DNA from: a virus
Taxonomy: Duplodnaviria; Caudoviricetes
Strand: one strand, 5' to 3'
Length of the DNA: 64,000 bases
IMG/VR virus record: IMGVR_UViG_3300033407_000010
Span: 217 to 64,216 of that record
Below the pieces are notes generated by a model. That model did not search any database. It saw only the letters and a program-made list of their open reading frames with translations, and was not told where the DNA came from. Positions 11,787-15,149 of the stretch are shown in pieces. Positions within the stretch are counted from its first letter, which is position 1, and every line of letters begins with the position of its first letter. The position numbers were made by a program, and so were the translations under genes.

Positions 11787-13447
11787 CCCGCGCCGCGATC
11801 TACGCCCGCTTCTCCTCCGAGCTCCAAAGCGATCGCTCGATCGACGACCAGGTCGTGCTCTGCCGGGAGTACGCAGCCCGTCACGGCTGGACCGTGACCG
11901 AAGCCTACGCCGATTACGCCGTGTCCGGATCGTCGGTGCACGGTCGCTTCGCCTTCGAGCGCCTGGTGGCCGACGCTCGCGCGGGGCGCTTCGACATCAT
12001 CCTCGCCGAAGATCTCGATCGGCTCTCGCGCAACCAGGCCGACATTGCCGGACTCTATGAGCGCATGCAGTTCGCCGGCGTGAAGCTGTGGACCGTGGGC
12101 GACGGCGAAATCTCCGAGATGCACATCGGCCTCAAAGGCACGATGAGCGCGCTGTTTCTCAAAGCCCTCGTGTTGAAGATCCACCGCGGCATGGCCGGCC
12201 GCGTGCGCGCCGGCAAGAACCCCGGCGGCATCGCCTACGGTTACCGTGCCGTCAGGATGATCGACGACCGCGGTGAGCCGGTGCGCGGCGAGCGCTCGAT
12301 CGACGAGCAGGAGGCCGCCGTCGTCCGGCGCATCTTCGCCGACACGCTGTCGGGGAAGACACCGCGCGAGATCGCGGCCGCGCTCAACAGCGATGGCGTG
12401 CCGAGCCCGCGCGGCGGCCACTGGAACGCCTCGACGATCCACGGCTCGCGCAAGCGCGGTACCGGCATCCTGCGCCAGGAGCTCTACGCCGGCCGGATGG
12501 TCTGGAACCGCCAGCGGTTCGTGAAGAACCCCGACACCGGCCGCCGGGTCACGCGCACGAACACGGCCGCCCAGCATCAAGCCGCCGACGTGCCGCAGCT
12601 GCGGATCGTGGACGACGGCGATTGGCTCAAGGTGCAGGCGCTGTTGGTGGCGCGCGGCGGGCCGCATGCGTCTCATGCCCGCAAGTCGCCGCATATCTTT
12701 TCGGGCCTGATGCGGTGCGGCGTCTGCTGCGGCAAGTACGTTTCCGCCGGCGGCAGCAAGTACCCGCGGTTCATCTGCTCGCGGCGCAAGGAGAGCGGCA
12801 CCTGCACGAACACCAGGATCGTCTCGGCCAGGATCATCGAGGACCGCACGCTCGCCGCTCTCGAGCGCGACCTGCTCGACGAGCGGCTGGTTGCCGAGGT
12901 CGTGCGCGAATACACGATCGAGCGCCAGCGTCTCAAGTCGAGTCGGCGGCAGCACGAACGGCGGGCGGCGAATCGTCTAGGCGAGATCGACCGGGCGGTG
13001 CGCGGGCTTGTCGCTCTGGTGGAAGCCGGTGCGGATCCCGCCTCCGTCATGCCGCGTCTGCGCGAGCTCGAAGGCGAGCGCGCCGCCATCAAGGCGGAGC
13101 GGCCGCATCCCGGCCGCGAGGTCATCGAGCTTCATCCCGGCATCGGCGATCGCTACCGCGCAATCGTGCGCGACTTGCGCGCGTCGCTTGGCACCAGGAC
13201 CGCGGACCGCAAGATTGACGTCATCGCGTCGGTGCGCAGCCTGGTCGACCGGATCGTGGTCTACCCGCACGATGACCCGGCCGGACGCGACCTTGAGCTC
13301 GTGGGCCAGCTCGCGGGGCTTCTCGGTACGGCCGAGCAGGTGGTTTCTGGTATGATGGCCGTGGTAGCGGGGGAGGGATTTGGGCGCCCTCATACCAGCG
13401 GCCGGTTCCAGCCGGTGATCATCCCGTTCCGCTCGGTGGCCGCGTAG
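11783..13447 (+). CDS. Large serine recombinase (phage integrase)
   Basis: AAIYARFSSELQ catalytic motif, ILAEDLDRLSRN, YAGRMVWNR recombinase domain, Zn ribbon FSGLMRCGVC...FIC...C, coiled coil. Confidence 0.95.
   Translation: MTRAAIYARFSSELQSDRSIDDQVVLCREYAARHGWTVTEAYADYAVSGSSVHGRFAFERLVADARAGRFDIILAEDLDRLSRNQADIAGLYERMQFAGVKLWTVGDGEISEMHIGLKGTMSALFLKALVLKIHRGMAGRVRAGKNPGGIAYGYRAVRMIDDRGEPVRGERSIDEQEAAVVRRIFADTLSGKTPREIAAALNSDGVPSPRGGHWNASTIHGSRKRGTGILRQELYAGRMVWNRQRFVKNPDTGRRVTRTNTAAQHQAADVPQLRIVDDGDWLKVQALLVARGGPHASHARKSPHIFSGLMRCGVCCGKYVSAGGSKYPRFICSRRKESGTCTNTRIVSARIIEDRTLAALERDLLDERLVAEVVREYTIERQRLKSSRRQHERRAANRLGEIDRAVRGLVALVEAGADPASVMPRLRELEGERAAIKAERPHPGREVIELHPGIGDRYRAIVRDLRASLGTRTADRKIDVIASVRSLVDRIVVYPHDDPAGRDLELVGQLAGLLGTAEQVVSGMMAVVAGEGFGRPHTSGRFQPVIIPFRSVAA
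13362..13381 (-). other. Putative attP core identical in layout to a tRNA 3' end
   Basis: Reverse complement AAAT-CCCTC-CCCCGCT-A-CCA parses exactly as T-loop end, 5-nt T stem, 7-nt acceptor strand, discriminator, CCA; lies inside integrase codons VVAGEGF. Confidence 0.75.
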
Positions 13448-13452
13448 AACAC

Positions 13453-13492
13453 AAAAAAAAGCCCCGCCACCCGGCGAACCGGACAGCGGGGC
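13453..13492 (-). terminator. Intrinsic terminator (minus strand)
   Basis: Minus strand GCCCCGC-TGT-CCGG-TTCG-CCGG-GTG-GCGGGGC followed by T8. Confidence 0.8.
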
Positions 13493-13505
13493 ATGTAGCC
13501 ACGCG

Positions 13506-13700
13506 GTGGGGGGATGTGAAGTGATGACTTGGGCCAGGCGCATGACCAACGAAGAACTTCGATCGGAGGAGTACGACTTAAAACAGCATATTGATTCTGG
13601 CGAGCGCGACGGCATCGCAGCAAGCCGATGGGCGGTCGATAGGTTGGATAAGATCTCAACCGAGCAGCGTCGGAGGGTTAACCCACCTAAAGCGATGTAA
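13506..13700 (+). CDS. Hypothetical protein
   Basis: 64 aa ORF; true start probably internal (MT...). Confidence 0.4.
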   Translation: MGGCEVMTWARRMTNEELRSEEYDLKQHIDSGERDGIAASRWAVDRLDKISTEQRRRVNPPKAM

Positions 13701-13710
13701 CAATTCGTGA

Positions 13711-13761
13711 TTAGGCTACTGCCTAACAGGACTCGACTTAGGCAAAAGCCTAATATAGATT
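13711..13761 (+). promoter_or_regulatory. Sigma70-type promoter with two palindromic operators
   Basis: TTAGGC-tact-GCCTAA 13711-13726 and TTAGGC-aaaa-GCCTAA 13738-13753; -35 TCGACT 13733-13738, 17-bp spacer, -10 TAGATT 13756-13761. Confidence 0.75.
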
Positions 13762-13824
13762 ATTGACTGTCAGCAGGAGCTGACGCCCGGCGCCTCGTGG
13801 GTTTCAGGGGTGGAGACAGACCCG

Positions 13825-14178
13825 ATGACACGCTATATCGCATCGATCGACAACGACATGAACATCAACTCCAAAAACCCAACCGCATGGCGGGTCAGCG
13901 TTTTCCCAGAGACCCTGGACGCCCCGTGGACGCGTCCTGCTGGCCAGTGGTTTCAAATCGTCCCGGTGCATAACAACAGCCGGACAGACCGCGCCTGTTT
14001 CGAATCGCGCCGCGAGGCGCTGATCGCTATCCTCGATTTCATCGGCACTCCGTGCGTGATCCGCGACACGCAATTCGGCATGGAGGAATCTTTGATCGTG
14101 ACAGGGCACGGCGCTAAATCACCGGCGCGCGTCGTGGCCTCACGGTCGGCAAGCGGCACGTTTGTGCAGGATCGATAA
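13825..14178 (+). CDS. Orphan protein, first gene of the accessory operon (anti-defence candidate)
   Basis: 117 aa from ATG 13825 with GGAG RBS. Confidence 0.65.
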   Translation: MTRYIASIDNDMNINSKNPTAWRVSVFPETLDAPWTRPAGQWFQIVPVHNNSRTDRACFESRREALIAILDFIGTPCVIRDTQFGMEESLIVTGHGAKSPARVVASRSASGTFVQDR

Positions 14179-14189
14179 ATGATCCCAAC

Positions 14190-14276
14190 CCGTTCCCCGC
14201 ACACGCGGGGATGAACCGAGCACCGGACGCAGAGGCCGCAGAGGCCGCCGTTCCCCGCACACGCGGGGATGCTCGC
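14190..14276 (+). CRISPR. Cas-less type I-E CRISPR mini-array (full repeat, 29-nt spacer, 3'-degenerate repeat)
   Basis: CCGTTCCCCGCACACGCGGGGATGAACCG 14190-14218; spacer AGCACCGGACGCAGAGGCCGCAGAGGCCG 14219-14247; second copy identical for 24 nt from 14248; stem CCCCGC/GCGGGG and ATGAACCG handle typical of I-E. Confidence 0.9.
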
Positions 14277-14391
14277 TTGACGGCCCCGCCGTCCGCAAGT
14301 TCCGGGAGGCCACTGGCCTCCCCCTGAAGCGCCGCACTACAGAGCGAATGACGCTCGCAACGGGCAACCCCGCCCTTTGATGGAGAGACAG

Positions 14392-14685
14392 ATGACCGAT
14401 CTTGAAGCCCTGGTTTCGATATCTCAAACCGCGATGCGCGCCCGTGGTCAGTGGTGCGTGGATGGTATTGACGAAACCCTTCGGCGCGACATTCGCGCCA
14501 TGGTCGGGGATTGCGCCAAACTGCTGGGGCTTTCGATGGATTATTCGGAAACGCTTGAAGGCATGGCCGTGCGAGAACTTGAGCGACGCGCCACACCCGG
14601 CAGCATTGAGTGCCCCCATTGTCATTGGGGCTTTGCACCGGCTGTGGTCGATCAGCATATCCGCGAAAAGCACGGGGAGGGCTGA
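14392..14685 (+). CDS. Small orphan protein with C-terminal C2H2-like zinc finger
   Basis: CPHC...VDQHIREKH; GGAGAG RBS. Confidence 0.65.
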   Translation: MTDLEALVSISQTAMRARGQWCVDGIDETLRRDIRAMVGDCAKLLGLSMDYSETLEGMAVRELERRATPGSIECPHCHWGFAPAVVDQHIREKHGEG

Positions 14686-14688
14686 GCC

Positions 14689-14889
14689 ATGGAGCCCAAG
14701 ATTTTGAAGGATGGCAGGGAAACCTACGCCGTGATTGGCGCATCCGGCGCCCGCGCAGGATCCATCCAGCGGGTTGGCCCGAAGAATGGTGGAATGTGGG
14801 AGGTCCAGATGCTCGCCTCCCCGCGTGAAATGGTTCGATTTTTTAAGGATGCCAAGGCAGAAGCCATCGAACTGGCGCGGAGGTATTGA
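14689..14889 (+). CDS. Small orphan protein
   Basis: 66 aa; GGAGGG RBS. Confidence 0.65.
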   Translation: MEPKILKDGRETYAVIGASGARAGSIQRVGPKNGGMWEVQMLASPREMVRFFKDAKAEAIELARRY

Positions 14890-14933: not shown

Positions 14934-15149
14934 ATGACCCCTCGCCAATTCGCCGCTATCAGAAAGCGCCTCGGCCTGTCGGCTTACGCGATGGGCAAGG
15001 CGCTTGGGTACGAGGGCAACCGCAACACGTTGCAGGTCGGAATCAGGAAATACGAATCAGGCGAACGGGAATTGCCGCCGTGGATCGCCCGGCTCGCTGA
15101 GATGTACGACGCGCACGGCGTACCGGGAAAATATCTGCCGGACGCGTGA
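14934..15149 (+). CDS. XRE-like HTH regulator (Aca-like position)
   Basis: MTPRQFAAIRKRLGLSAYAMGKALGY...IRKYESGERELP. Confidence 0.8.
   Translation: MTPRQFAAIRKRLGLSAYAMGKALGYEGNRNTLQVGIRKYESGERELPPWIARLAEMYDAHGVPGKYLPDA

Follow-up and report, generated by a model that had tools for sequence, protein, structure and literature searches.

CRISPR repeat units borne by phages are known in three modes: guides directed against rivals, decoys (Racr) and regulators that silence cas genes (Cracr). Sequence alone still discriminates these modes poorly. Virus-borne mini-arrays were described by Faure et al. 2019 and Medvedeva et al. 2019, as reviewed in PMC11656645, and their spacers target mostly related viruses (PMC11656645). 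In the SRUFinder rule, a mini-array has one full and one partial repeat within 100 bp (PMC10651486). Among the decoys, RacrIE1 and RacrIE2 have been validated against a P. aeruginosa type I-E system (Camara-Wilpert et al. 2023, PMC10651486). Among the regulators, a CracrIE array of a Salmonella prophage carries pseudo-spacers of 21-24 nt that match the host casA promoter and host CreR (Liu et al., bioRxiv 10.1101/2024.10.29.618823). Both Racr and Cracr RNAs are often found in contexts of the acr-aca kind (PMC10651486; bioRxiv 10.1101/2024.10.29.618823). The type I-E unit analysed here would be a mini-array under the SRUFinder rule (PMC10651486). It presents a clean, well-bounded case of conflicting cues, with canonical repeats and a near-canonical spacer length on the one hand, and on the other a non-pristine spacer, for which no target was found, in a slot like that of acr-aca operons.

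The unit is encoded by a phage known from an IMG/VR record of 64,216 bp, estimated to be about 96% complete; the window, i.e. the whole stretch of 64,000 nt that was analysed, covers almost all of this record. The gene set comprises a large terminase, portal, major head protein, tape measure, primase-helicase, CI-type repressor and large serine integrase. The phage is a temperate siphovirus. Its capsid has its nearest match in a Rhizobium phage, at 49% identity, and no capsid match was found in five repeat-bearing genomes. At the nucleotide level, deposited phages yielded distant matches to the integrase only. Spacers of host arrays match the phage over 13-18 nt only, which is the level expected by chance.

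The 3' end of the integrase gene (13340-13447, core at about 13352-13375, minus strand) holds the 3' end of a tRNA (...AATCCCTCCCCCGCTACCA) on the opposite strand. Three relatives of the integrase (L201, L202 and L204, 43-47% identity) end at provirus edges that lie in a tRNA-Met(CAU)-like 3' half, from which this family of large serine integrases appears to insert into a tRNA gene, with the att core within the integrase gene. The attP site, placed by the core matched inside the 3' end of the integrase gene, is about 0.8 kb from the repeat unit, so the operon would sit at one end of the prophage in a lysogen. Two further ideas about the repeats were rejected on these grounds: that they are part of attP, since the att core is inside the 3' end of the integrase gene some 0.8 kb away, and that the phage integrates into a CRISPR array, since the integrase relatives insert into a tRNA gene. 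Just past the integrase stop codon, at the would-be prophage end, is a strong, leftward-facing intrinsic terminator on the minus strand (13461-13492, a 14-bp stem and a T run). The hairpin of this terminator drives the one weak match, Atu_C7-like, that a search of Rfam returned.

The unit consists of a complete 29-nt type I-E repeat (R1, 14190-14218, CCGTTCCCCGCACACGCGGGGATGAACCG), a 29-nt spacer with 76% GC (14219-14247) and a second repeat (R2, 14248-14276), all on the plus strand and with a repeat period of 58 nt. R1 has its hairpin at 14195-14210 and an 8-nt handle, AUGAACCG, at 14211-14218. The first 24 nt of R2 are those of R1, and its CCCCGC/GCGGGG hairpin (14253-14268) is intact; the final 5 nt are unrelated, so that the 3' end reads CTCGC as against AACCG in R1. 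The two repeats are the only copies in the entire virus record, and the expected number of occurrences of the 27-nt R1 core in the shuffled window is 0.00. This is the anatomy given in the preliminary description, which had also noted that cas genes are lacking. The latter point extends to the full record, where profiles of Cas6e (PF08798), Cas7e (PF09344) and Cse1 (PF09481) found no match, the positive control being matched each time. The locus is thus confirmed as a genuine Cas-less, leaderless, one-spacer type I-E unit. An origin by spacer acquisition into a solitary repeat was considered and rejected, as acquisition would copy the whole repeat, yet the 3' ends of R1 and R2 differ.

Cas6e cuts the type I-E repeat at the base of its stem, leaving an 8-nt 5' handle, and remains attached to the hairpin of its product. 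Cleavage at this site in both repeats is predicted to yield a single 58-nt crRNA-like RNA (14211-14268, plus strand) made of the 8-nt 5' handle, the 29-nt spacer and a 21-nt 3' hairpin. Both hairpins are present in the predicted RNA fold. The proposal that host Cas6e would release exactly one such RNA is supported. The differences of R2 are confined to its last 5 nt, which are dispensable because no spacer follows. In the same fold, the spacer shows partial complementarity to the trailer; this was rejected as the mark of a target, seed pairing being absent.

More than 120 arrays with a period of 61 nt, distributed over many phyla, have exactly the 27-nt core of R1 as their repeat; arrays of the cultured strains Rhizobium daejeonense L61 and Gemmobacter caeni DSM 21823 are among them. 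Eight of the ten tested genomes that have arrays with this core encode cse1/cas8e, and in L210 such an array adjoins cas8e. By exact identity to arrays in cse1-bearing genomes, R1 is a type I-E repeat, and the repeat class first assigned to it stands. The full 29-nt repeat is present in Holophagales, Vicinamibacterales, Acidobacteriota and Salinisphaera, among others. The alphaproteobacterial host first suggested is not established, given the occurrence of the repeat in Acidobacteriota and Salinisphaera and the distance of the capsid from that of the Rhizobium phage. No host array searched has the same trailer or the same terminal repeat as the phage unit. A leader is also absent upstream of R1, where the best local alignment scores 19 against 59 host leaders; host leaders end in ...CAGGAAGA or ...AAGAAGT, and this motif is missing before R1. 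In the absence of a leader, transcription of the unit relies on the promoter of the operon, and new spacers should not be acquired.

One public sequencing run contains this sequence, a soil metagenome that is probably its source, of which an independent assembly was examined. One contig of this assembly joins R1 to the upstream 117-aa open reading frame (ORF), and another carries R1, spacer and R2 together with the downstream 97-aa ORF. These contigs break at R1, so that, judged by them alone, extra spacers may have been collapsed in assembly. In the bin that holds R1, depth sums to about 5,271, as against about 11 for the phage, and the run contains many repeat-spacer-repeat contigs with other spacers. 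Arrays with the R1 repeat, and presumably also their type I-E hosts, are therefore abundant in the community from which the phage was sampled.

The unit lies within an accessory operon of the phage, as had been proposed, and the layout of this operon resembles that of acr-aca operons. It begins with a promoter/operator block (13692-13760, plus strand, as are all the features that follow) that carries a conserved AATTCGTGAT motif, twin TTAGGC-N4-GCCTAA palindromes (13711-13726 and 13738-13753) and TAATAT; the palindrome occurs at two sites in the window, against 0.04 expected. A diverged copy of the 5'-UTR element of the operon, recognised by alignment with relatives, is at 13771-13789. It is followed by the 117-aa ORF (13825-14178, GC3 0.72), the cargo gene directly upstream of the unit, whose stop codon is 11 nt before R1. 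This protein is an orphan: it has no homologue among 5.8 billion proteins and no match in Pfam, PHROGs, PADLOC or PDB. Comparison with a protein atlas gave scores below 0.9 and TM below 0.4, and an AlphaFold model made without an alignment has a pLDDT of 42 and is unusable. No promoter-like site was called within 13400-14800; the nearest promoter-like region is some 430 nt upstream of R1, with the 117-aa ORF between them.

Downstream of R2, a degenerate second copy of the promoter region (14287-14339) is homologous to the promoter that precedes the L132 homologue, with a local alignment score of 62 over the whole segment. At the position of the operator palindrome of the relatives, it contains a trailer palindrome (14304-14324, GGGAGGCC-ACT-GGCCTCCC) that forms a hairpin in the fold; this may be a decayed operator, or a hairpin that, once Cas6e has cut, stabilises the downstream mRNA at its 5' end. 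A well-conserved copy of the 5'-UTR element (CAGAGCGAATGACGCTCGCAAC, 14340-14361, by alignment with relatives) precedes a 97-aa ORF with a CxxC...H...H motif (14392-14685), a 66-aa ORF of no known family (14689-14889) and an XRE-type HTH regulator (14934-15149, 71 aa as called), which is the conserved 3' gene of the operon and has a weak HTH_31 match and a match to phrog_14076. The 97-aa ORF has homologues of up to 68% identity on other phage contigs, where no repeat unit lies upstream, and relatives of the HTH protein, likewise on other phage contigs, show 66-84% identity in pairwise blastp and up to 86% in a database search. An IMG/VR search for relatives of the two ORFs that flank the unit found none. 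Searched by sequence against Pfam, PHROGs, PADLOC and PDB, the operon proteins show no specific likeness to known Acr or Aca proteins, the weak HTH_31 match being a generic one, and none has a tblastn match in 72 viral loci with I-E repeats.

The promoter layout, consisting of the AATTCGTGAT motif, palindromes, TAATAT and a conserved 5'-UTR element, is common to five relatives (module at L233:1262-1911, L234:88-654, L235:2990-3692, L236:2482-3010 and L132:1245-1862). In these relatives the palindrome half-sites vary in step with the HTH variant, and across six phage contigs the genes between promoter and HTH are unrelated. In several soil phages, the module has a conserved 70-aa XRE HTH, a conserved 5'-UTR hairpin and small, often acidic cargo, and an integrase often adjoins it. 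On these sequence patterns, the HTH and its operators are a candidate new Aca-like regulator with a slot for anti-defence cargo. The module, conserved in its HTH and operators and exchangeable in its cargo, offers a place to look for new anti-defence genes.

None of the relatives of the operon genes carries a CRISPR-like repeat, and a search of IMG/VR found no sibling of the cassette junction. The segment 14287-14400 aligns end to end with the promoter-UTR region of the L132 relative, and two copies of the 5'-UTR element, the diverged one before the 117-aa ORF and the well-conserved one before the 97-aa ORF, bracket the intervening sequence. We infer from this that the 117-aa ORF and the unit together are a lineage-specific cassette, placed between the promoter and the former first gene. 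The identity of R2 with R1 ends at or beside the point where promoter homology with the relatives resumes, which identifies its last 5 nt as a recombination junction, the right-hand one of the cassette. The broken 3' handle is accordingly a junction and no designed feature; nor do the changes have the form of scattered decay.

This junction is central to a reading that we regard as possible while leaning against it, in which a piece of a host I-E array (an internal repeat, a spacer and 24 nt of the next repeat) entered the operon through recombination, illegitimate or UTR-mediated, and serves no function. The exact coincidence of the end of R1/R2 identity with the restart of the relatives' promoter homology is what such an event would leave behind, as is the bracketing of the cassette by two 5'-UTR copies. 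The unit is moreover leaderless and found in one phage only, no target was found for it, and its spacer shows a slippage-like change of the kind expected without constraint. However, the 53 nt needed by Cas6e and Cascade, i.e. R1 and the R2 hairpin, are unchanged from the consensus of working arrays, whereas the adjacent, redundant copy of the promoter has lost a motif kept in all relatives; the latter comparison is suggestive only. The orientation of the unit also agrees with that of the operon, and the piece amounts almost exactly to a single functional unit.

The spacer is atypical in two respects, length and internal duplication. In real arrays, 2,265 of 2,427 repeat-to-repeat spacings (93%) are 61 nt and only ten (0.4%) are 58 nt or less; spacers of 29 nt or less number 4 among 2,420 (0.17%). 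At 14229-14246, the phage spacer contains a perfect tandem duplication of 9 nt (GCAGAGGCC twice), and perfect tandem duplications of at least 9 nt are found in 8 of the 2,420 real spacers (0.33%). No real spacer among the 2,420 combines the two, and a tandem-duplication unit of more than 6 nt is found in none of 151 phage-borne I-E spacers. Were the duplication secondary, the spacer would have been 20 nt long. Being rare in both length and duplication, the spacer is no longer in the pristine state that adaptation produces, and its build fits with an absence of constraint to match a target over the full length. The earlier view that it is not an ordinary acquired spacer is thus upheld. The 58-nt period, which had been used as an argument for a decoy or repressor, fails by itself in that role. 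When a spacer of the E. coli type I-E system was made 3 nt shorter, its RNA was processed to the expected size, with one Cas7 fewer and no profound effect on interference (PMC5159557), so a crRNA-like RNA with a 29-nt spacer need not be aberrant.

A target for the spacer was sought widely. With each sixth position free, the full spacer has no match in IMG/VR or in 241 million metagenome contigs. Its first 23 nt have none in IMG/VR and three in metagenomes, which are chance-like, do not extend and have no AAG PAM. Within the phage itself nothing exceeds shuffled controls, and only chance-level matches are found in relatives of the phage and in about 120 host array loci. Close relatives of the phage are nearly absent from collections, which makes the missing protospacer weak evidence.

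These results bear on the usual reading of viral mini-arrays, according to which the crRNA would direct host Cascade and Cas3 to a competing phage or plasmid, in this case as superinfection exclusion from an operon at the prophage end. We consider this unlikely for the present unit. It would accord with the predominance of related viruses among the targets of viral mini-arrays (PMC11656645), with the temperate lifestyle of the phage and with the location of the unit, some 0.8 kb away from attP. The spacer has a high GC content and a coding-like periodicity, and the 3-nt shortening is tolerated for interference in E. coli (PMC5159557). In most phage-borne I-E units of two or three repeats, furthermore, the period is near-canonical, and the last repeat of several is degenerate. 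Against it stand the failure to find a protospacer even with the relaxed pattern, to be weighed in light of the scarcity of relatives, and the combination of length and duplication that is unmatched among real spacers.

A census of IMG/VR identified about 56 phage-borne clusters of I-E repeats, falling into two groups. The first contains many units of two or three repeats with periods of 61-63 nt, with a degenerate last repeat in L010, L190 and L197. The second consists of six of the about 56 clusters (L003, L146, L007, L004, L166 and L179), whose periods are short, at 36-56 nt; in host arrays, short spacings make up 0.4%. The short-period units have promoter-like pseudo-spacers of 19-27 nt, which in some of the units, notably L003 and L146, are AT-richer and mutually similar, and they look like Cracr-type arrays. 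With its period of 58 nt and a spacer that is GC-rich and coding-like, the unit analysed here is intermediate between the two groups. Several loci encountered in the census and in host genomes are worth recording in their own right. Short-period units of 48-56 nt are found at L003:142-340, L146:2028-2230, L007:6894-7060 and L166:878-960 (all minus strand) and at L004:8316-8460, and in L003 and L007 a terminator-like hairpin follows the unit. On an unrelated phage contig, a two-repeat I-E mini-array with a period of 62 and a degenerate last repeat is directly upstream of an XRE-type HTH gene (L010:552-640), which makes it a second instance of a mini-array beside such a regulator. A Porticoccaceae metagenome-assembled genome has a genomic unit of the CreR/Cracr kind with a period of 55 and a palindromic spacer, GTACCACCGGTGGTAC (L085:1818-1900).

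Host units like CreR were found upstream of cas8e at L209:1138-1260, in L212 (minus strand, about 390-520 of the reversed upstream region) and at L215:1116-1240. These loci come from an uncultured alphaproteobacterium, from Rhizobium daejeonense and from a genome sampled from the same class. In all three, a pseudo-repeat is followed by a 32-nt pseudo-spacer and a 3'-degenerate repeat, with a period of 61. The pseudo-spacers of L209 and L215 match the DNA that immediately follows the unit, next to a TTGACA box, and there the degenerate end of the repeat gives an AAG-like PAM. The phage spacer was compared with 28 cas8e loci from Alphaproteobacteria, Acidobacteriota and others, where the best seed-anchored run is 9 including wobble, as against 8-16 for shuffled sequences. 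With no seed match above chance upstream of cas8e in these 28 loci and no likeness to the CreR-like units, the repression variant of the earlier proposal, in the manner of Cracr, found no support.

The explanation we tentatively prefer, giving it somewhat less than an even chance, is that the unit is a mimic of crRNA which, excised by the Cas6e of the host, occupies Cascade or redirects it, i.e. an RNA counter-defence in the broad sense. It is favoured because the spacer is non-pristine and no target was found for it, the parts relevant to Cas6e are intact, and the cargo slot is acr-aca-like. The unit would be transcribed within the operon mRNA from the operator-controlled promoter at about 13700-13760. 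In a host whose type I-E system uses this repeat, Cas6e would then bind both hairpins and cut after each, releasing one 58-nt RNA (14211-14268). With its 8-nt 5' handle and its Cas6e-bound 3' hairpin, this RNA could load Cas5, Cas7 (probably five copies rather than six), Cse2 and Cse1. So loaded, it would compete with host crRNAs as a decoy or, less probably, act as a guide that parks Cascade at a regulatory site. Transcription, processing, Cascade loading and any effect on immunity are here inferred.

Consistent with a mimic, R1 is an exact copy of the repeats of working I-E arrays, R2 keeps a complete Cas6e hairpin, the unit sits where an acr-aca-like locus has its cargo, short non-canonical periods are commoner among phage-borne I-E clusters than in host arrays, and compatible arrays are abundant in the same soil sample. 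Counting against a mimic, the unit is seen in a single contig and is absent from relatives of the flanking genes, so that selection cannot be demonstrated. It is neither solitary nor directly behind a promoter, unlike Racrs, and its spacer is longer, more GC-rich and more coding-like than the pseudo-spacers of the short-period phage units. The lack of a match to a cas promoter or host CreR among the loci searched, and of Acr or Aca likeness in the operon proteins, likewise weighs against it.

Cleavage by Cas6e within the operon suggests two further readings. In one, which we judge very improbable, the unit is in essence a processing site, at which Cas6e would part the message of the 117-aa ORF from that of the 97-aa ORF, 66-aa ORF and HTH gene and so tie expression to an active I-E system. 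The unit does lie between two cistrons of one transcription unit, 11 nt past a stop codon, with an autoregulator encoded downstream, and Cas6e staying on its product hairpin would suit such a role. No precedent was found for such a role, and cleavage of the message is a side effect to be expected of any array within an operon. In the other, very unlikely in our estimation, the operon would represent a new family of counter-defence operons that combine protein and RNA, in which an Aca-like HTH and its operators control swappable cargo, including a near-full-length crRNA decoy, and the Cas6e cut between cargo and repressor makes output responsive to whether an active type I-E system is present in the host.

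Compared with the described systems, the unit shares with viral mini-arrays its one spacer between two repeats, its residence in a cas-less viral genome and the identity of its repeats to those of real arrays. It differs from them in that no related-virus target was found, the spacer is 3 nt short and carries a duplication, there is no leader, and R2 is cut by a junction. The absence of a leader also sets it apart from canonical CRISPR arrays, as does its period of 58 rather than 61-62. Like Racr, it is a phage-borne mimic of CRISPR repeats in an anti-defence-looking locus and would be expected to bind Cas6 and Cas7. Unlike Racr, it has two repeats 58 nt apart instead of a solitary one with no other within 100 bp, is not directly behind the promoter, and has as its predicted product a nearly complete crRNA and not a bare repeat. 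With Cracr and viral crlRNAs it has in common a type I-E unit of repeat, pseudo-spacer and degenerate repeat, carriage by a phage and a position outside a cas locus, but unlike Cracr its spacer is 29 nt long (as against 21-24 nt), is not promoter-like and finds no match in the 28 cas8e regions. The anatomy of host CreR/CreA mini-arrays is the same; these differ in being part of a cas locus, and the phage spacer has no partial match downstream of R2 or in the promoters of L209, L212 and L215. The operon as a whole is like acr-aca operons in its conserved 3' HTH gene, in the twin inverted-repeat promoter that co-varies with the HTH and in the small upstream genes that vary between phages; the operon proteins have no sequence similarity to known Acr or Aca families. 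The unit thus belongs with the known viral mini-arrays, Racr and Cracr, although it is oddly built, and it introduces no new principle. What is new here is the lineage-specific cassette in an acr-aca-like slot, the junction in R2, the absence of a leader and a spacer that is doubly atypical.
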